Below are positions 1 to 8,900 of a DNA stretch of 64,000 nt, piece by piece. This DNA comes from Methanobrevibacter sp. (GTDB taxonomy: Archaea; Methanobacteriota; Methanobacteria; Methanobacteriales; Methanobacteriaceae), in contig JAFZMD010000091.1 in NCBI GenBank assembly GCA_017553445.1, positions 12,164 through 76,163 on the forward strand, in the 5' to 3' direction. A program made the translations under genes and the position numbers. The notes under the pieces were generated by a model. The model was not told where the DNA came from and did not search any database. It saw only the letters and a program-made list of their open reading frames with translations. Numbering within the stretch: position 1 is the first letter of the stretch; each line of letters begins with the position of its first letter.

Positions 1-3000
1 TTTGGAGACAATTTAGAATTTAAAGACCAGGACAAATCATCATTTTTGATCCACAACCCAGTATCATCATACCAACTTATGTATGTTAAGCCGCCATATT
101 GATATTCTTTAACTAAAACATTATTTAACTCTACTTTACCGGTATTTTTAACAGTTACTTCAAATACAACCTGATCTCCAACAGCAACAGTTTTATTAAT
201 GGAAATTTTATTCACTTCAAATTCAGGCACAACAACTTCAACGGTATCATTAGCCGTTTTATTGCTACTTTCATTAGAAGTTACAGTTACATAATTAGTA
301 AAGTTACCCTCCTTTGTGGTATTAAAGACTGCATAAAATCTTGAAAGTTCACCTACATACAATATATCGTTGAATGTGAAAGTTAAATCTCCATTGTCAA
401 TCCACAAACCTGAATGATCAATAATATGGTCAAATACTAAACCTTCATCAAATTTCTCATAAATAGTGACATTATGTAATCTTTTATCACCAGTATTTCT
501 AACAATGATTTCAAATATTGCCTGAGTTCCATTTAAGACCAGTTTTTCTTGCACATATTTTTCAACGTTTAAATTTGGATTAGTTGCATTTTTTTCCGGA
601 TCATAAGGAGGTTCATTCTCATAAACAAATGTAGAATTATTAGCCGTTTTATTTTCCACATTATTTGCACCGGCAGTTACTGTGTTAGTCCAATTACCAG
701 TTTGAGTTGCATTAAATATGACTATTAATGTAGCAACATCATTAGGTTTTAAAGATTGGACTAATTTAAATGTAGGATATTTATCTTCAAAGTTAGGATA
801 CCATTCTTCATTATCAACATAAGAATGATATGTTAGATTCTCATAATCTGTCTCTTCAATGAATACTCCCGTTAAAGTAGTCTGGCCGACATTTCTAACA
901 ATGATTTGGAAATAAGTCAAATTATTTTTATGGACAAGAGGAGTTAAAGTTACTTTTTCAACTGTGAATTTTGGTTCTACAACTTCAACAGTGTCATTTG
1001 CTGTTTTATTTGGAGTGTAATCTGCACCACCAACAACAACATTAGTAAAATTACCTGCTACAGTAGTATTGAAGACAACAAAGAAACCATGAGCCTCACC
1101 AACAGAAAGCACATTATTAAAAGTCCACTTATGCTTACCCCCAACAACAGACTCAGTCCAGTGACCTAAACCAAAAGCATGATCAAACACCAAACCATCA
1201 TATTCAAACTCCTCAACAAATACATTATTCAAATCAATGCCACCAGTATTAGTAACAACAATTTCAAATGTAACCTGCTCACCAACAACAACAGTAGGAT
1301 TCAAGCTAATCTTTTCAATCTCAAATTTAGGATCTACAACTTCAACAGTTTCATTATCTGTCTTATTTCCAGTTTCATTACTGCCTGCAGTTACTAAATT
1401 AGTCCAATTACCTGCTTTAGTAGTATTGAAGACAACAAAGAAACCATGAGCCTCACCAGGAGCAATTGTACCATTGTATTTCCAAAGGTATTTTCCTCCC
1501 TCATTATATTCAATCCAATTACCCAAACTATAAGAACTTATAAATTCTAATCCTTCACCATAATCTGTTTCTTCAATAAATACATCAGTTAAATCGATTA
1601 AACCGATATTTCTAACAAAAACTTCAAAGTCTACTAATTCACCAACAACGACTGTCTTATTTAAAGCAATTTTATCGACTTTAAAATCAGGCACTGTAAC
1701 AACAGTGTCATTTTTCGCTGTTTTATTTTCAGTTTCATTGCTACCCGCAACAACAACATTTGTAAATGTACCGACTTTAGTTGTATTAAAGACAACAGAT
1801 AATATTGTAACTTGATTAATACCTAATACATCATTTAAAGTCCATCTGTTTTTACCATTTACAACCGAATGAGTCCAATGAGTTTGATTTAAGCTATGGC
1901 TAAATATTAACCCATCATAACTTGATTCTTCAATAAACACTCCTGTTAAATCTGTTAATCCTGTGTTTCTTACTATAATTTGGAAAGTTGTTTGTTCACC
2001 AAGTGTAACAAGAGGTGTAATAGTAATTTTTTCCACATTGAAGTTAGAGTCTAGAACTTCAGTACTGTTTGATGCATTATTATTGTCCATATTTGAATCA
2101 GGAGTACTACTATTAACAAATACATTATTAACAATAGTAGTATTGTCTGTATTTACTCTTGTAGTAATCTTTAAGGTAGCTGTATCACCTTTAGCCAGGT
2201 TACCAATATTCCAACGACCCGTCTTTAAATTATATCTACCATTAGAATCATCTCTTAAATATGTAAGAGTTGAAGGAAGAATATCAATAGCATAAGAATC
2301 AACAGCAATATCAGGACCATTATTGGTAGCAACTATAGTCCAAACAATTTCATCACCAATAACGGAAGTCTCTTTTGAAACCAATTTTATAACACTTAAA
2401 TCAGCAAGTGAATTTGGAGTAGTTGTATTATCAGCTATGTTATTACTTTCATTTGGGTCATATGTACTACTATTCACATTAGCAATGTTTAAAATAGTAG
2501 TATTTGTAATATTTACAATAGTTCTAATAGTTAAAGTAACTACTTGGTTAACATTCAATGTTTTAATATTCCAAACTCCAGTACTTGGATTATAATCTCC
2601 ATCAGCACCATTAAATATTAATCCATCTGGAATTTGATCAATTACATAAGCATCGGATACATTATTAAATCCATAATTTGTAGCTACAATAGTCCAAGTA
2701 ATTTCATCTCCAAAATTAGGAGTCTTATTTGAAACATACTTTTCAACGGCCAAATCAGCAACAGGAAGGATTTCAAAGTAGGTCATGTTTGTAATATATT
2801 TATATAATCCATCTTCAAAGTGAGTTACATTTACTGAATAGTTTCCTGGAAGAAGACCTTTTTCAGATACACTAGTATTTCCTAAAATGCCCGTTTTGGA
2901 AGTAAAATTAATTAAAACTTTACCTGTTTCAAGATGAGTGAGAACTATAGTAATGTTTTGCAAATCTTCACGTGAATCCTGATATAAGATTGTACCATTT

Positions 3001-5000
3001 TTACTGTTCTCTACACCATCTACTGGATTGATAAGTTTATTTCCAGTGTTATGAGTATCATTTACTGAAGATTCATAAGTTACATTATAAAAGAAGATAT
3101 TATTTGGTGAACCATCATTATAAATAGCATTGATAATGTTATCTCCACCTCTATGCGTAACATTTATGGTTATAACACCTTCAGGATCATAATAAATACG
3201 TTTTTTATTAGATATTGTTGTTAAAAGATAACTCCAAGCTTGATTTTCAATAAAGGTATCATCTTCAATAGTTAAATCTTTGCCTCGGTTATAAATTGCA
3301 GAACCGTTACGTGCAACATTATTTTCAAAATAACAATATGCAATATCAGAATTTTCTCCTTCAATATAAATTGCTCCACCTAAACCTTGATTCATGTCTT
3401 CTGTAGAAGCAATTGCAGTATTTGAAGTAAAATTAGAATTTAAAATTCTAAGGTTATCCCCCTGAGAGTGTAAAGCACCACCATGAAAGATTGCATCGTT
3501 ATTATTAAAAACAGAATTATTTACTAAGGTATTGTTACCAACAACATAAACTCCCGCTCCACCTCTAGAAGCAGTGTTGTTTTCAAAAGTGGAATTGTCA
3601 ATAAAGGTATTGTCCCCAATAATGTATATGGTACCTCTTGAACATTCATGTTCATAGAATTCAGAATTTATTACGGATGAATTCTGTCCGTGAATATAAA
3701 TTGCGGAACCATTTCCATTAGTTGCATAATTATCCCAAAAAGTACAGTTAATGAAATTATTATAGTTACCCGTGATGTGTACTGCTCCACCTTCTTCAGT
3801 ACCAGTATTATTTCTAAAGTAACAGTCGACAATATTGTTATAGTGTCCTTCAGGAATTCCATCTAAACCATGGTCAATACCTGCAAGCATATAAGCAGCC
3901 CCCTGTTTTGCTGTATTATTTTCAAAAGTACAGTTTTTAACAACAAGGTAATTTTGACTTGAACCTATAGCTCCACCTCTTTCAGTTGCAGTGTTGCCGA
4001 TGAAAGTACAATTTATAATGTTAGAATGGTAATTTTCATTGATTCCAGCATTACCATGAACATAAATAGCTCCTCCAACACCGGCACTACAATTAATAAA
4101 ATTAGAATTAAATATATCTACTCTGTTATTTCTTTCACCAGCAACACAAATAGCACCTGAGTGTCTGTTAGTTGTACAGTTAATAAAATTACAATGATCC
4201 AATACTGAATTATATGTTACGGCCATTGCAGCATATTCATAATCATTCTCATCCTCTTCTTCTAAAGAATGACAGTTCGTAAAGTTTACATCATATAAAT
4301 TAGAATTTCTTATAACAAAACCAGCTACAGCAAGTGTAAAATTATCAAACAAAACGTGGTTTAAATTACAGTTAACAAAGAAATTCGGATACATACAAAC
4401 ATCATTAAAGTTTTTAAAAGTTATATTTTCAAAATTACAGTTTTTAATTTCATTACGTTTACTTATAGGAATAGAAGTTATATTGCCTGCATTAAAAATT
4501 CCATTGATAAAAGTTAAGTGTTTTTCTGTTGAAATACTAGGATTTCCATTTTTTGCTCCAATGATTTCTTTACCTTCCAAATCAATGATATCTCCATCAT
4601 TTGCTATTGTTATAGCATCTCTAACATCACTAAAATAATTTCCTTGTACTTTAATAATATTATTTGATTGAAGAACATAATCTTCTTCATTACTTATTCC
4701 CAATAAAGTTTTTTCATCTACATTTTCATTTTCAATACTTTTAAGTGATGTTTTTTCACTTTCATTATCATCAATTGAAATATCATTTGTTACATCATCA
4801 AGTGGAATGTCACTTGTTACTTCATCATAGGAAGTGTCATAGTTCACTTCCAAAATTTCTTCTTCAATTATTACATCCTGTTCAACAGATAAAAAATCAG
4901 TTGTTGAATCAGCAATATCTTCACTAGCACTAACAATTCCAATACTAGTGGATAAAAAGATTAACATTAAAAATATGTATAAAATCGACTTACTTTTCAT
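1..5000 (-). CDS. Adhesin-like surface protein, N-terminus complete, C-terminus cut by window edge (signal peptide, parallel beta-helix region, at least 8 DUF11-type repeats)
   Basis: Reverse complement from 5000 reads ATG AAA AGT AAG... = MKSKSILYIFLMLIFLSTSIGIVSASEDI (signal peptide). The frame checked at several points (3719, 1300, 200, 59) stays open. The ORF track lists no minus ORF starting at 5000, consistent with no stop before position 1. N-terminal half has beta-helix turns (NCTFENNTAKQGAAYM, GGAIYVHG, GGAVHITG). The distal part has repeats with motif GExVTFEIVVTNTGxxxLxxVFIEE (for example PTVVVGEQVTFEIVVTNTGG at about 1240-1300 and VAVGDQVVFEVTVKNTGKVELNN at about 125-195). Confidence 0.85.
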   Translation of the reverse strand, partial: MKSKSILYIFLMLIFLSTSIGIVSASEDIADSTTDFLSVEQDVIIEEEILEVNYDTSYDEVTSDIPLDDVTNDISIDDNESEKTSLKSIENENVDEKTLLGISNEEDYVLQSNNIIKVQGNYFSDVRDAITIANDGDIIDLEGKEIIGAKNGNPSISTEKHLTFINGIFNAGNITSIPISKRNEIKNCNFENITFKNFNDVCMYPNFFVNCNLNHVLFDNFTLAVAGFVIRNSNLYDVNFTNCHSLEEEDENDYEYAAMAVTYNSVLDHCNFINCTTNRHSGAICVAGERNNRVDIFNSNFINCSAGVGGAIYVHGNAGINENYHSNIINCTFIGNTATERGGAIGSSQNYLVVKNCTFENNTAKQGAAYMLAGIDHGLDGIPEGHYNNIVDCYFRNNTGTEEGGAVHITGNYNNFINCTFWDNYATNGNGSAIYIHGQNSSVINSEFYEHECSRGTIYIIGDNTFIDNSTFENNTASRGGAGVYVVGNNTLVNNSVFNNNDAIFHGGALHSQGDNLRILNSNFTSNTAIASTEDMNQGLGGAIYIEGENSDIAYCYFENNVARNGSAIYNRGKDLTIEDDTFIENQAWSYLLTTISNKKRIYYDPEGVITINVTHRGGDNIINAIYNDGSPNNIFFYNVTYESSVNDTHNTGNKLINPVDGVENSKNGTILYQDSREDLQNITIVLTHLETGKVLINFTSKTGILGNTSVSEKGLLPGNYSVNVTHFEDGLYKYITNMTYFEILPVADLAVEKYVSNKTPNFGDEITWTIVATNYGFNNVSDAYVIDQIPDGLIFNGADGDYNPSTGVWNIKTLNVNQVVTLTIRTIVNITNTTILNIANVNSSTYDPNESNNIADNTTTPNSLADLSVIKLVSKETSVIGDEIVWTIVATNNGPDIAVDSYAIDILPSTLTYLRDDSNGRYNLKTGRWNIGNLAKGDTATLKITTRVNTDNTTIVNNVFVNSSTPDSNMDNNNASNSTEVLDSNFNVEKITITPLVTLGEQTTFQIIVRNTGLTDLTGVFIEESSYDGLIFSHSLNQTHWTHSVVNGKNRWTLNDVLGINQVTILSVVFNTTKVGTFTNVVVAGSNETENKTAKNDTVVTVPDFKVDKIALNKTVVVGELVDFEVFVRNIGLIDLTDVFIEETDYGEGLEFISSYSLGNWIEYNEGGKYLWKYNGTIAPGEAHGFFVVFNTTKAGNWTNLVTAGSNETGNKTDNETVEVVDPKFEIEKISLNPTVVVGEQVTFEIVVTNTGGIDLNNVFVEEFEYDGLVFDHAFGLGHWTESVVGGKHKWTFNNVLSVGEAHGFFVVFNTTVAGNFTNVVVGGADYTPNKTANDTVEVVEPKFTVEKVTLTPLVHKNNLTYFQIIVRNVGQTTLTGVFIEETDYENLTYHSYVDNEEWYPNFEDKYPTFKLVQSLKPNDVATLIVIFNATQTGNWTNTVTAGANNVENKTANNSTFVYENEPPYDPEKNATNPNLNVEKYVQEKLVLNGTQAIFEIIVRNTGDKRLHNVTIYEKFDEGLVFDHIIDHSGLWIDNGDLTFTFNDILYVGELSRFYAVFNTTKEGNFTNYVTVTSNESSNKTANDTVEVVVPEFEVNKISINKTVAVGDQVVFEVTVKNTGKVELNNVLVKEYQYGGLTYISWYDDTGLWIKNDDLSWSLNSKLSP

Positions 5001-5947
5001 AATTTCACCAAAATATACTCTTTTTAAACTATATATCACCTGATATGTTAGTTGATTTTATTGAAAGCTTCCCCCCAATAAACAATGGTTAATTATATGA
5101 AGCAATATGGTGATGTTTACTTGAAAATATTGAAGAAGAATAAAAGTTAAAAAAAGAAGATTCATTATAATTATTATCTAACTGACTCGAATTTGGCGAG
5201 TCTTTTATAATATCTTCGATAAAATCAAATTTAAAATCGTCCTTTAAAGTATATATAATACCGGATTTAATAAAAATTTGCTTTTTATTGAAATGAACTT
5301 CGATAGAGTTATTTACATAATTATTATGAATAATACTATTTGAACTAAATTCTAAATCAACCATATAATCATCACTGTGAATTTTTTCTATTTCACCCAG
5401 ATCATTTAAATAACCATTTAAGCAGACTTCATCAATCTGATAACAATTAACACTAGTTTCATTAATATTACAATCACAACAATTGAAAGTGATAACAATA
5501 CTAATTTAAGAAATATTGTTAATCTTAAAATCTTTGATTTAAAAGCCAGCATATATCACGTTTATTAAATTTTTTTTAACAAAGCTATTTATTTAACATA
5601 TTATAAAAAAAGTTAAATGACCATAGCTTAACAAAATATATTGTTAGTCATCATATATAAACTATACAGTTTGATAATAAAATTAATTATAAATATTCAG
5701 TTAAGTATCTATTTGATATAACTATATTATACTGTATAGGTATTTTCAAAAAAATTGACAATACATATTTATAACAAAGTTATAATAGGTGGTTTCTAAA
5801 AAAAGGATTAGTTTTATAGATAACGAACAGAAAAATTATGAAAAAAATTTTCTACAGTAACCAAAAATTATTGCAAATAATGTGAAAAATTGATGCAAAA
5901 ATTATTTTTGAATAAAAATAAATATAACAAATTCATAATTTAATAAT

Positions 5948-7063
5948 ATGACTACCTTGGAGAAGATGAAAATTCTGACTGATTCGGCACAGTATGATTT
6001 ATGTGATTATGTCAATCATAACAAAAGTTCACAGGTAAATCTACCTGGAATCTATCATGCTACCGGACATAATGGTTGTCAAATTCCACTTTTTAAAACG
6101 CTCCTCACCAACAAATGTAAAAATGACTGTAAATACTGCATTAACCAATCCAAAAGAAACTTTACTAGGCTTGAACTTGCACCTGAAGAACTTGCAAAAG
6201 CATTTCTTAACTACTACAATAGAGGTCTTGTAAACGGTTTGTTCTTAAGTTCAGGTGTCGATAGAGATGAAGATCTTACAATGGAAAAAACAATAGAAAC
6301 AATTAGAATCTTAAGAAAAGTTTATGGATACGATGATTATATACATTTAAAAATTGTTCCGGGAGCAAGTAAAGATTCAATTAAAAGGGCTATGGCTCTT
6401 GCAAACAGAGTCAGCATTAATATTGAAGCTGCTACCCCATCAGGATTAGCTGAACTGTCATCTACCAAGGATTATAATAAAGATATACTAAAACGCCTGC
6501 GTTGGATTGATAACTTACATGGTAAAAGTACAACCTATCCAAATTCTACCCACACCACTCAGCTAATTGTCGGTGCGAACGATGAAAGTGATAGGGAAAT
6601 TTTACATAGAATGGAAAAAATCTACAATAAAACGAAACTGAAGAGAACATATTTCTCCGCATTTTCACCAATTGAAGAAACAGATTTCGAAAATAAAGAG
6701 GCTTGCAGTACAGATAGAACTGCGAAATTATATAATGCGGATAGTTTACTTAACGATTATCATTTTAAACTTAATGAATTAGTATTTGATGAAAACAACC
6801 AATTGTCATTAACACAAGATCCAAAGATTTTAGCTGCTGAAAATATGGATATATTTCCTGTAGAAATTAACTCAGCACCTTTCATAGAACTGATTCGTGT
6901 GCCGGGAATTGGCATGAAATCTGCTAGAAAAATAATTTCTATTAGAAAAAAAATGCCATTCAAAAACAAAAATGAATTGAAAAAACTGGGTGTGGTTGTC
7001 GATAGAGCTGAAAAGTATATTAAAATAGATGGAGCTTATCAAAGTCTATTAGAAAATTTCTAA
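5948..7063 (+). CDS. Radical SAM protein of the 'putative DNA modification/repair' family (TIGR03916-like) with C-terminal helix-hairpin-helix
   Basis: 371-aa ORF. CX3CX2C cluster CKNDCKYC. Family-like blocks ILTDSAQYDLC, LFLSSGV, IHLKIVPGAS, SINIEA, QLIVGAN. C-terminal HhH IRVPGIGMKSARKIISIR. Confidence 0.8.
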   Translation: MTTLEKMKILTDSAQYDLCDYVNHNKSSQVNLPGIYHATGHNGCQIPLFKTLLTNKCKNDCKYCINQSKRNFTRLELAPEELAKAFLNYYNRGLVNGLFLSSGVDRDEDLTMEKTIETIRILRKVYGYDDYIHLKIVPGASKDSIKRAMALANRVSINIEAATPSGLAELSSTKDYNKDILKRLRWIDNLHGKSTTYPNSTHTTQLIVGANDESDREILHRMEKIYNKTKLKRTYFSAFSPIEETDFENKEACSTDRTAKLYNADSLLNDYHFKLNELVFDENNQLSLTQDPKILAAENMDIFPVEINSAPFIELIRVPGIGMKSARKIISIRKKMPFKNKNELKKLGVVVDRAEKYIKIDGAYQSLLENF

Positions 7064-7069
7064 TATATT

Positions 7070-7615
7070 CTATTTTAAATCTTCAAACAAATTCCAAATT
7101 TCAGGATATTTTTTAGATACCGCTTCATCAATTAATATTGATGCTTCACGACTAATACTGAATTCAGGTTCTGTTTTTCTTAAATATCTAAATACAGCAG
7201 CAGACCTTGAAGACCATAATGTTATTCTTGGGTTTTTATCAACAATATCTAAAACTTCAGCTACATTTTCCTGTTTTTTGACATCTTGTGGATTTGATAT
7301 GCTTTCTTCACTGCTTTCATCCCCAGATACATCTTCGGATTCGCTAATGCCCACTTCAACTTCTTCCTGGTCATTACTACTTGATATCCTTTCTCCAGTA
7401 TCTTCATTTGTGTCTTCCGGTTCATTGCCATCAACTTCTACAGAATCTTCAATATCTTCTACATCAAGCTCCTTTTTTTCATTAGATTCATCTATAGGTG
7501 TTTCATCCTTTTCCTTTAGCATGTCTTCTAATGATTGAGCACTATTGCTATCAAAATCTTCATCATAAAACTCAGGTATTAAAGAATCTAATCCTTTACC
7601 AAGTCCACGAGTCAT
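7070..7615 (-). CDS. ParB-like partition adaptor: ParB N-terminal peptide, polyacidic linker, predicted RHH C-terminal domain
   Basis: 181 aa. N-terminus MTRGLGKGLDSLIPEF resembles the ParB/Spo0J N-terminal ParA-stimulating peptide. Residues ~17-125 are D/E/S-rich low complexity. The C-terminus RITLWSSRSAAVFRYLRKTEPEFSISREASILIDEAVSKKY fits a strand-helix-helix pattern. The start codon abuts the parA stop codon (7615/7616). Confidence 0.7.
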   Translation of the reverse strand: MTRGLGKGLDSLIPEFYDEDFDSNSAQSLEDMLKEKDETPIDESNEKKELDVEDIEDSVEVDGNEPEDTNEDTGERISSSNDQEEVEVGISESEDVSGDESSEESISNPQDVKKQENVAEVLDIVDKNPRITLWSSRSAAVFRYLRKTEPEFSISREASILIDEAVSKKYPEIWNLFEDLK

Positions 7616-8392
7616 CTAATCACTTCCATCTCTTTGTAAAATTTCTTTTGCTAATTTCAAATAAGCCTTTGTTCCGGTACTATCAGGATCATATATTAAA
7701 CATGGTTTTCCAAAACTTGGTGCTTCAGCTAGCCTAATGTTTCTTGGAATAATAGTCTTTAACAGCAAATTGGTTTCACCAAAGTAGCTTTTTAATTCCT
7801 TATGAACATCCCTACTTAATCTAGTCCTTCTATCATATAAAGTAAGTAAAACACCTTTAATTGGTGTAGGACTTTTAAGCCTTTGTTCTACAAGTTTAAT
7901 AGTATTTATCAAATCTGCAACACCTTCGAGTGCATAATATTCAGCTTGAATTGGTATTAATACACTATCTGAGGCGACTAATGCATTTACAGTTATCACA
8001 CCTAATGAAGGAGGTAAATCAATAAAAATATAATCAAATAACGGAATAACATCTTTAAGGGTTTCTTTCAAAATAATATGGTAATTTTCTCTTTGAGAAA
8101 GTTCAACACCGGCACCACTTAATGATATGTTACTTGGAATTATGAATAAATTTTTTATAAATGTAGGGATAGTGGCTTTTTTAATATTTATATCCCCTAT
8201 AATTGCATCATAAATAGTATTTTCTAATTCGGTTTTATTTATTCCAAAACTAGTTGTTGCATTTGCTTGGGGATCCATATCTACAACTAAAACAGACTTT
8301 CCCATTACAGCTAGTGAAGTTGCGGTATTTACTACAGTAGTTGTTTTCCCACATCCTCCTTTTTGATTCATTACGGCTATTACTTCACTCAT
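7616..8392 (-). CDS. parA: ParA/Soj-family partition ATPase
   Basis: 258 aa. Deviant Walker A NQKGGCGKTTT. DMDPQANAT block. Overall Soj/ParA length and pattern. AGGAGA Shine-Dalgarno upstream of the ATG. Confidence 0.9.
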   Translation of the reverse strand: MSEVIAVMNQKGGCGKTTTVVNTATSLAVMGKSVLVVDMDPQANATTSFGINKTELENTIYDAIIGDINIKKATIPTFIKNLFIIPSNISLSGAGVELSQRENYHIILKETLKDVIPLFDYIFIDLPPSLGVITVNALVASDSVLIPIQAEYYALEGVADLINTIKLVEQRLKSPTPIKGVLLTLYDRRTRLSRDVHKELKSYFGETNLLLKTIIPRNIRLAEAPSFGKPCLIYDPDSTGTKAYLKLAKEILQRDGSD

Positions 8393-8419
8393 TAAATAAT
8401 TCTCCTAATTAAAATGATA

Positions 8420-8870
8420 CGTAAGTTAAAAGATTTAACTTAAAAAAGTTAAACCCCCTAACTTAAACGAGATAAATTATAAGTTAACATGAACTTTTAA
8501 GTTAAAAGGTATAACATATAAGCTATACCCTCCAACTTAAATGAGATAAATTATAAGTTAACATGATTAAGTTAAAAATATTAACTTAAAACTTCTAAGG
8601 AAGAAGGTATAACCTATATTTTATAAGTTAAACCCTCAAACTTAAAAGTGATAAATTTTAAGTTAACATGATTAAGTTATACGAAATAACTTTTAACATT
8701 TAAGTTATCATAAATAAGTTAAAAGAATTAACTTTTAACTATTAAGTTATATTTTATAACTTCAACCTTATAAAGTATTTGTTTTCAGAAATAAGTTATT
8801 AGTTATAAGTGAGAAGTTATAACAAAAAATAAAATTATAAGTTATAAGTGAGAAGTTATAACAAAAAAAA
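8420..8870. repeat. Iteron field upstream of parA: three ~58-nt direct repeats plus two 29-nt identical repeats, all built from AAGTTA/TAACTT hexamers (candidate centromere/operator)
   Basis: Unit A starts at 8454, 8528 and 8633 (CCCT.AACTTAAA.G.GATAAATT.TAAGTTAACATGA..TTAAGTTA...ATAAC). Unit B AGTTATAAGTGAGAAGTTATAACAAAAAA is identical at 8801-8829 and 8840-8868. I counted 16 AAGTTA and 6 TAACTT exact hexamers in ~450 bp. Confidence 0.8.
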
Positions 8871-8900
8871 TATAAAAAAATAAAAGAGTGAAAATCACTC
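8861..8900 (-). terminator. Hairpin plus oligo-T terminator downstream of trpB2
   Basis: On the minus strand the stem GAGTGA-TTT-TCACTC (8886-8900) overlaps the TAG stop. It is followed by TTTTATTTTTTTATATTTTTTTT. Confidence 0.5.

Follow-up and report, generated by a model that had tools for sequence, protein, structure and literature searches.

The DNA considered here, a stretch of 64,000 nucleotides from a Methanobrevibacter sp. contig (JAFZMD010000091.1, positions 12,164 to 76,163; hereafter the window), carries a small gene directly behind a gene for a ParA ATPase and, upstream of both, an array of short repeats. The small gene, at 7070-7615, probably codes for a euryarchaeal SegB, the ribbon-helix-helix (RHH) centromere binder of the SegAB system, which would work together with a ParA of the bacterial Soj type. 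The features of the locus are the following.

8423 to 8868, no strand assigned: candidate centromere or operator array, 22 AAGTTA/TAACTT half-sites, mostly 13-15 bp apart.
7616 to 8392, minus strand: parA ("segA" in the literature), 258 amino acids, Soj-type deviant Walker A ATPase (Pfam AAA_31, E = 1.6e-62).
7620 to 7627, minus strand: Shine-Dalgarno-like GGAAGTGA, in the 3'-terminal part of parA, 4 nt before the ATG of segB.
7070 to 7615, minus strand: segB-like gene, 181 amino acids plus stop codon, ATG start; putative centromere-binding partner of ParA.
7577 to 7615, minus strand: ParB-type ParA-binding motif MTRGLGKGLDSLI, residues 1-13, with L5, K7, L9, L12 and I13.
7517 to 7576, minus strand: conserved extension PEFYDEDFDSNSAQSLEDML, residues 14-33, invariant in Methanobrevibacter and holding a second short motif, SLEDML.
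7280 to 7516, minus strand: disordered polyacidic linker, residues 34-112, 40 % D/E, net charge -27, pLDDT below 50.
7073 to 7279, minus strand: SegB-type RHH DNA-binding and dimerisation domain, residues 113-181, assigned from homology and an AF2 model.

Read directly from the sequence, the ATG of the segB-like open reading frame (ORF) follows the TAG stop codon of parA with a gap of 0 nt, and the Shine-Dalgarno-like GGAAGTGA inside the parA end suggests that the two genes may be translationally coupled. Alignment of 19 Methanobrevibacter homologues revealed a three-part layout, in which residues 1-33 and 113-181 are near-invariant and the middle varies freely; across 308 homologues the linker ranges from 13 to 239 amino acids. 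Neither the ORF nor its C-terminal 71 amino acids gave a useful domain match in Pfam, NCBIfam or PHROGs. At E <= 10 these three collections returned no ParB/Srx, helix-turn-helix (HTH) or other domain for the ORF, from which we conclude that the ParB/Srx and HTH domains are absent; the Pfam families ParG, Omega_Repress and RHH likewise gave no match at E <= 10. The sole PHROGs match of the SegB query, a terminase small subunit at E = 0.84, is not significant. An initial annotation, made from the window sequence, had described this locus as a 181-residue ORF abutting a Soj/ParA gene without a gap, lacking ParB/Srx and HTH domains and containing a D/E-rich middle of low complexity, and in all three respects it was right. 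The full-length AF2 model is of low confidence (pLDDT 53.7) and was used for secondary structure and disorder only.

The ORF has 1573 homologues at E <= 0.01, and those of the top 120 that bear a name all come from Methanobrevibacter. At E <= 0.001, an exhaustive search through 1.84 billion cluster representatives yielded 208 clusters (50 % identity). Named members of the euryarchaeal clade belong to Methanobrevibacter, Methanobacterium, Methanothrix/Methanosaeta and Thermococcus.

In archaeal SegAB the centromere is bound by SegB, which consists of an N-terminal ATPase-activating tail, a variable middle and a C-terminal RHH (Yen 2021, PMC8682754). The Sulfolobus solfataricus protein (Sso SegB) no longer stimulates SegA when its first 21 residues are removed, and its RHH domain binds palindromes upstream of segA (PMC8682754). 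SegAB of Sulfolobales is represented by S. solfataricus SSO0034/SSO0035 and by S. acidocaldarius, with SegB structures in PDB 7duv and 7dv2.

The C-terminal part of the window protein clearly belongs to this family. A profile search, which the initial annotation had proposed for this module along with its guess of a SegB-like RHH, found these structures: hmmsearch with the 19-homologue profile against PDB matched S. solfataricus SegB 7duv (E = 1.3e-6) and 7dv2 (E = 1.6e-5) over residues 93-180. Comparison by hhalign with 26 Sulfolobales SegB sequences gave 96.6 % probability (E = 5.9e-10), rising to 98.4 % (E = 1e-14) from a diverse euryarchaeal alignment, and with both alignments only the C-terminal domain was aligned. 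The published C-terminal signature of SegB reads K/R-D/N-P-K/R-I-G/T-V/L-W-S-Y/P-P/E (PMC12139799); residues 127-137 of the window protein, KNPRITLWSSR, fit its first nine of 11 positions (KNPRITLWS, residues 127-135), and the last two (S, R) do not fit. The putative reading strand NPRI[TS]LWS is near-invariant. Four of the six DNA-contacting residues of Sso SegB are kept, as R130 (K52), W134 (W56), S155 (S77) and R156 (R78), the Arg in place of K52 having been noted in euryarchaea already by Yen et al. (PMC8682754), and the dimer-dimer residue P72 is conserved as P150. For residues 105-181, AF2 with an alignment of 48 sequences gave a confident model (pLDDT 85.5) that contains alpha1 (109-127), an extended segment (128-135, NPRITLWS), alpha2 (136-145), alpha3 (154-169) and alpha4 (171-176). 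This order agrees with the SegB structure, with the strand 128-135 left unpaired in the monomer model.

Two peculiarities of SegB-like proteins were seen in passing. Many are labelled "AAA family ATPase" or "ATPase AAA" by NCBI and UniRef (P0036, P0045, P0050, P0366, P0389, P0414 and others) and have no P-loop or ATPase domain; the label may have been copied from the adjoining ParA, which PGAP also calls "AAA family ATPase". Ten proteins (P0190, P0194, P0231, P0232, P0240, P0247, P0252, P0255, P0258, P0268) carry a tandem pair of SegB-like RHH modules in one chain and no ParB-type N-terminal peptide, and P0176 combines that peptide with two such modules. Proteins with two modules may be single-chain pseudo-dimers with a different role.

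The N-terminus of the window protein reads MTRGLGKGLDSLIP, in which L5 G6 K7 G8 L9 D10 S11 L12 I13 fits the pattern L-G-[RK]-G-L-x-x-L-[IL] within the first ~20 residues. In Myxococcus xanthus ParB the ParA-binding motif comprises residues 11-19, of which L11, R13, L15, L18 and I19 are functionally required, and about half of ParBs have Lys in place of the motif Arg (PMC12462528). L5, K7, L9, L12 and I13 of the window protein are spaced as these five residues. Full-length-looking representatives of the 208 clusters all start with a variant of xxLG[KR]GLD[AS]LI[P], the euryarchaeal SegB pattern being xGLG[KR]GLD[SA]LIP. When a profile of 40 archaeal N-terminal peptides was run against 177,635 PDB sequences, its top match was Thermus thermophilus Spo0J, residues 6-18 (SGLGRGLEALLPK, E = 0.011).

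Bacterial comparators were obtained by searching the window ParA against plasmid and chromid records and taking the genes downstream of the best Soj matches. Beside the closest bacterial Soj proteins, ParB starts with MAKGLGKGINALF in Listeria and Priestia and with MTPKKRGLGKGLDALLS in Aeromonas; further starts are ..NRLGRGLSALIPE in Clostridioides difficile and ..NALGRGLDALLS in Bacteroides. A hidden Markov model (HMM) of the archaeal peptide scored five bacterial ParBs at 15.5-22 bits, every match lying at the N-terminus, against 3.9 bits for the best other ORF in a background of 453 ORFs. Single-sequence phmmer with the 33-residue N-terminus against PDB and tblastn with the same query against plasmids each returned 0 matches, which we attribute to a query that is too short and maybe masked; the profile search and the ParB neighbours were used instead. 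Judged by these sequence comparisons, the ParB-like N-terminal peptide is real, in line with the ParA-activating peptide of ParB proposed at the outset.

The second short motif, SLEDML (residues 28-33, window 7517-7534), lies 15-25 residues past the ParA-binding motif; in the AF2 model, residues 29-33 form a short helix. The form (S/T)LED(M/I)L is confined to the Methanobrevibacter-like and "GLDSLIP" groups and is not family-wide.

The 507-bp intergenic region upstream of parA (8393-8899) contains 19.7 % guanine plus cytosine (GC), compared with 30.3 % for the window, and is crowded with repeats. It holds 22 AAGTTA/TAACTT hexamers where 0.63 would be expected from the rest of the window. Six perfect AAGTTA-N7-TAACTT palindromes start at 8423, 8446, 8569, 8674, 8716 and 8744. 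With at most one mismatch the palindrome has 12 matches in the window against 0.69 expected, all but one of them within 8423-8762, and a count of 12 was reached in 0 of 100 shuffles. The repeats at 8420-8870 that had been pointed out in the initial annotation are evidently far from random, and they are conserved in position: in Methanobrevibacter loci with the full 700 bp upstream of parA, this stretch contains 11-26 hexamers versus 2-16 in the remaining 4-8 kb, and all perfect palindromes lie upstream of parA.

Related repeats precede parA outside Methanobrevibacter. Four of the six hexamers at the Thermococcus litoralis locus lie at most 70 bp from the parA start, TAAGTTATAACTTA among them. 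The same 14-bp palindrome TAAGTTATAACTTA stands upstream of parA in the Methanobacterium-like contig L042, and tandem TAACTT occurs there in L040. Kabli et al. looked around segAB of Thermococcus sibiricus for copies of the Sulfolobus motif and detected none (PMC12284271). We propose the AAGTTA-based array as a candidate euryarchaeal centromere motif, agreeing with the near-invariant NPRI[TS]LWS strand, and as the putative site that such a search would miss.

The distal end of the array (8793-8868) is a 39-bp tandem pair, AAGTTAT[TA]AGTTATAAGTGAGAAGTTATAACAAAAAA, 95 % identical. It carries the half-site variant AAGTTAT, and AAGTTAA dominates near parA; the two variants may be sub-classes of half-site.

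Two other ideas about local sites were dropped. The Sulfolobus-type SegB motif TAGASTCTA has only two copies in the window, at 2045 and 12326, none of them near the operon. A replication origin was considered for the repeat region and set aside, as the repeats follow the parA promoter in other genera; a scan of ten neighbouring genes on the upstream side of parA, out to 24177, showed no Cdc6/Orc1 gene. Separately, AAGTTAGAGTCTAGAACTT at 2041-2059 places the AAGTT/AACTT arms of the local repeat around TAGAGTCTA, a core that fits the AGA(G/C)TCT of Sulfolobus SegB sites. It sits inside a large ORF, its core occurs twice in the window against 0.26 expected, and it is probably due to chance.

With the nearest site 31 bp away from the start codon of parA (the nearest palindrome 31-49 bp upstream of it), repression of the operon is probable. 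This raises the question whether the protein does no more than repress transcription of its own operon as an RHH protein, with the repeats as its operators and ParA positioning some cargo other than DNA. Such a restricted role would suit the Thermococcus and Methanobacterium-like loci, where just 2-4 half-sites stand at the promoter, more like an operator than a centromere, and ParA/MinD ATPases do position many kinds of cargo (PMC12462528). A mere repressor, however, needs no invariant ParA-binding peptide, and no other part of the protein is so well conserved from lineage to lineage. The Methanobrevibacter array, with ~22 half-sites over 450 bp, goes far beyond the needs of an operator, and the type Ib RHH binders ParG, omega and Sso SegB are repressors and centromere binders at once. 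We therefore consider repression as the protein's sole function unlikely.

The partner ATPase is closer to bacterial Soj than to SegA. It contains KGGCGKT with K11 and K16, and R220 occupies the position of the non-specific-DNA-binding Arg (M. xanthus R238). Against PDB the window ParA scores 241 bits with M. xanthus ParA (8ray), 213 with Helicobacter pylori Soj, 191 with T. thermophilus Soj and 65 with Sso SegA (7dut). Its sequence identity is ~45 % with M. xanthus ParA and 47-54 % with the Soj proteins of Clostridioides, Listeria, Bacteroides and others. It is not of the SegA type, which is characterised by ~220 amino acids and Crenarchaea-specific dimer-interface residues (241 versus 65 bits). 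The same preference for Soj over SegA is repeated in the ParAs of T. litoralis and of the Methanothrix-like contig L041.

Mapping through the PDB alignment places the ParB-peptide pocket of the window ParA at V96, L130, V132, V135, L167 and L172, plus Y61 and E97. Identical to M. xanthus are the equivalents of V116, L150, G151, L187, L192, Y81 and E117; L152 and L155 are replaced by Val and E82 by Asp. The invariant Y81 and E117 of M. xanthus ParA adjoin the ParB arginine (PMC12462528). In a MAFFT alignment of eight archaeal ParAs from four lineages, where the window ParA is represented by L021, a 258-residue ParA identical at all tabulated positions, this Y and E never vary, and five of the six pocket positions carry a hydrophobic residue in every one of the eight; at the sixth, seven ParAs have L, I or M and the window ParA has V. 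Sulfolobus SegA differs in this pocket region and in its activating peptide (PMC12462528). Sulfolobales SegB N-termini read MSELD[FL][LI]LxKKK, a SegA-binding type of peptide that the window protein does not have. In the sequences compared, peptide type thus tracks ATPase type: Soj-type ParA goes with LG[KR]GL and short SegA with MSELDFLL.

These data also bear on the idea that the tail resembles ParB only superficially or by convergence and activates ParA in the manner of Sulfolobus SegB or ParG, at a site other than the bacterial ParB pocket or by an arginine-finger-type mechanism. The motif has only ~9 informative residues, single-sequence searches are not significant, Sulfolobales tails (MSELDFLLKKK) share only the LDxL[IL] core, and one arginine-contacting ParA residue has changed. 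Yet each of the five motif positions that have been tested functionally agrees in residue and in spacing, the partner ATPase is ~45 % identical to M. xanthus ParA with its pocket conserved, the type of peptide follows the type of ATPase, and the archaeal peptide HMM cleanly separates real ParB N-termini. Mere convergence is for these reasons quite improbable.

The pair of genes, parA and its small acidic neighbour, for which the initial annotation had proposed a survey, is conserved. Of 38 Methanobrevibacter species-representative loci, 37 have parA (74-96 % identical) directly upstream of the segB-like gene, and at the 38th the contig ends 38 nt upstream of that gene. In all four loci from other lineages, namely T. 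litoralis and three metagenomic contigs (L040 and L042 Methanobacterium-like, L041 Methanothrix-like), parA abuts or overlaps the segB-like gene, the adjoining AAA_31 ParAs of these four loci having 248-261 amino acids. The neighbours in the window are housekeeping genes (PALP enzyme, LeuA-like gene, GatA), which favours a chromosomal system over a mobile element. One might instead assign the cassette to an integrated plasmid, provirus or other mobile element, as its partition module. In favour of this, type Ib plasmids classically combine a ParA, a small RHH protein and iterated repeats, the intergenic region is rich in AT (19.7 % GC vs 30.3 %), and the neighbours in L041 include a DDE transposase and GmrSD. 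Such an origin is nonetheless highly improbable: the cassette keeps the same position in 37 Methanobrevibacter species loci between housekeeping flanks, a radical-SAM neighbour with a helix-hairpin-helix motif and an upstream thrS recur in L040 and L042, and the SegB query has no significant PHROGs match.

That radical-SAM gene, which has a C-terminal HHH_3 helix-hairpin-helix DNA-binding motif, is convergent with segB and lies directly downstream of it (window 5948-7063, plus strand); it is also kept at L040 3638-4765 and L042 3644-4762, and thrS lies upstream of parA in both contigs. The Methanobrevibacter parA-segB cassette was also met on contigs labelled "Bacilli bacterium" (L013) and "Bacteroidaceae bacterium" (L026). 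The tblastn coordinates, identities and scores of L013 are exactly those of Methanobrevibacter L014, and both contigs are most likely mis-binned contigs of metagenome-assembled genomes rather than bacterial homologues. At the left end of the window, a stop-free frame of at least 1685 amino acids (3-5057, minus strand) runs off the window start; it begins with the signal-peptide-like MKSKSILYIFLMLIFLSTSIG and may encode a large surface or adhesin-like protein. This frame explains why almost no long ORFs are listed in 1-5900. No RNA gene came up in Rfam and tRNA scans of 1-12 kb.

We consider it likely, then, that the ORF encodes a euryarchaeal SegB, the RHH centromere binder of a SegAB system, that works with a ParA of the Soj type; methanogens would seem to combine a ParA motor of bacterial style with an archaeal anchor on the DNA. 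This is backed here by the homologies of the modules, the synteny, the conservation of the ParA pocket and a non-random, conserved array of sites. We infer binding of DNA at the sites, docking of the peptide on ParA, activation of the ATPase, autoregulation, a function for the linker and a role in chromosome segregation, which may fit together as follows. SegB would dimerise via its C-terminal RHH, and the strand NPRITLWS (R130, W134) would read AAGTTA half-sites. Many dimers would load on the ~450-bp array upstream of the parA-segB operon, building a partition complex that probably also represses the operon. Each dimer would display two N-terminal peptides (LGKGLDSLI) on long acidic tethers that repel DNA, and these could dock, like bacterial ParB peptides, in the hydrophobic pocket where the subunits of nucleoid-bound ATP-ParA dimers meet, K7 serving as the equivalent of the central Arg/Lys and triggering ATP hydrolysis. 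A ParA-depleted zone would form, and chromosome copies bearing the centromere would follow the resulting gradient. No CTP-gated clamp or sliding would take part; the multi-site array would supply a high local concentration of peptide instead.

Several points weigh against this reading. The peptide match is short and could be convergent. Two base- or phosphate-contacting residues of Sso SegB, K75 and K81, are not conserved (S153 and S159), so that the DNA specificity is only guessed, and of the four ParA residues placed close to the ParB arginine, one differs (M. xanthus D110 to S90). Foldseek with the C-terminal monomer model recovered nothing from PDB at E <= 0.001, SegB and other RHH proteins included; we take this null as uninformative, because the model is a monomer of an obligate-dimer fold, and the RHH assignment accordingly rests on homology. 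Many euryarchaea are polyploid, which makes their need for active segregation uncertain, and to our knowledge all SegAB experiments to date concern Sulfolobales and none a euryarchaeon. In M. xanthus, efficient ParA binding needs both peptides juxtaposed by closure of the CTP clamp (PMC12462528); with no clamp mechanism and a long linker in the SegB-like protein, avidity may be weaker. S. acidocaldarius SegAB is unlike the bacterial diffusion-ratchet (PMC12139799), and the downstream cell biology may differ as well.

A further step can be taken only tentatively, and we hold it for a possibility somewhat short of an even chance. The ParA-binding peptide might be a portable module common to the structurally unrelated CTPase/HTH ParB and RHH SegB. 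Euryarchaeal "SegAB" would then be a true chimera, composed of a Soj motor, the ParB activation peptide and an archaeal RHH anchor reading AAGTTA heptad-like sites, and the Sulfolobales form would be derived. Their MSELDFLL tail retains only the LDxLL half of the motif. If the Sulfolobales system is derived and not the donor, the direction proposed in print, with Euryarchaeota taking SegB from Sulfolobaceae, would be reversed.

Part of what we describe was already in print. Euryarchaeal SegB clades, including Methanobacteriales, and strict segA-segB synteny have been published (PMC12284271, PMC12139799, PMC5120986), with surveys of 2025 listing SegB homologues of Methanobacteriales beside ParA-like genes, and the layout of the protein is that of SegB (PMC8682754). 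The initial annotation therefore erred in calling the architecture undescribed; it is supported in its view of a partner of ParA with a ParB-type peptide, an acidic middle and an RHH, and its notion of a hybrid is borne out by the ParB motif in the euryarchaeal tail, the Soj-type ATPase that has kept its pocket and the SegB RHH anchor. In the published view, SegB has no sequence identity to bacterial proteins (PMC12284271, PMC12139799, PMC5120986), the N-terminus of euryarchaeal SegB is poorly conserved and the homologues were acquired from Sulfolobaceae (PMC12139799). The searchable literature, outside which Kalliomaa-Sanford 2012 (PNAS) falls, yielded no mention of a ParB-type motif or Soj-type pocket in euryarchaeal SegAB, and a full-text search for the peptide motif strings returned nothing relevant. 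What appears to be new, as far as that literature shows, is the nature of the euryarchaeal tail, a bacterial ParB motif, and of the ATPase, which is Soj-type; the family membership itself was known.

Archaeal chromosome segregation is poorly understood, and the literature has treated the euryarchaeal homologues as scarce, poorly conserved imports. The present data point the opposite way: a large clade (208 clusters), an extremely conserved ParB-motif tail and a Soj-type ParA with a matching pocket. If our reading is true, a ParB peptide would drive a ParA motor without a CTP clamp, which bears on models that require clamp closure to join the peptides. Methanobacterium, Methanothrix and Methanobrevibacter are rods or coccobacilli. 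A 2025 preprint has linked segB to spherical cell shape, arguing the case for Thermoproteota, and calls euryarchaeal homologues scarce.

Among known systems, Sulfolobales SegAB shares with the window the homologous C-terminal RHH, with the signature [KR][DN]P[KR]I[GT][VL]WS, and the plan of a disordered N-terminal ATPase-activating tail, a middle that expands lineage-specifically and a DNA-binding C-terminus. In both, the gene directly follows or overlaps a ParA-family gene and sites lie just upstream of the operon (candidate sites here); the segS heptads of S. acidocaldarius (AGNGTNN, e.g. AGAGTTA) resemble TAAGTTA of the window. The tails differ, LG[KR]GLD[SA]LI in place of MSELDFLLKKK, and so do the ATPases, a 258-residue Soj-type ParA (241 bits with M. 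xanthus) as opposed to a 220-residue SegA (65 bits). Unlike the Sulfolobales system, the window has a polyacidic linker, no segC and a candidate site based on AAGTTA rather than AGA(G/C)TCT, in a much larger array (~22 half-sites).

Bacterial ParABS (M. xanthus, T. thermophilus, H. pylori, Bacillus subtilis) is matched by a ParA 45-54 % identical, with the deviant Walker A, the non-specific-DNA-binding Arg and the ParB-peptide pocket, and by a partner that starts with the same ParA-binding motif and is encoded behind parA, probably with translational coupling. In contrast to ParB, the window protein has no ParB/Srx CTPase (PF02195, GxxRxxA box), no HTH and no ParB C-terminal dimerisation domain, and hence lacks a CTP clamp, the sliding or spreading that depends on one, and parS; it is predicted to bind DNA through its RHH. 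Type Ib plasmid systems (TP228 ParF/ParG, pSM19035 delta/omega) also use a small RHH dimer whose flexible N-terminal tail stimulates a small ParA and which binds short iterated repeats upstream of its own operon, as centromere binder and repressor. No sequence similarity to them was detected, their tail motifs are different, and the window has a chromosomal context and an acidic linker of ~80 amino acids; the resemblance to ParG and omega is architectural only. The AspA-ParB-ParA system of the Sulfolobus plasmid pNOB8 has three components, with a ParB made of a bacterial-like N-domain and a CENP-A-like C-domain and with a winged-helix AspA that binds DNA, and neither these ParB domains nor the winged helix are present in the window protein. 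Like the methanogen cassette, it is nonetheless an archaeal machine in which bacterial-type and archaeal-specific parts are mixed.

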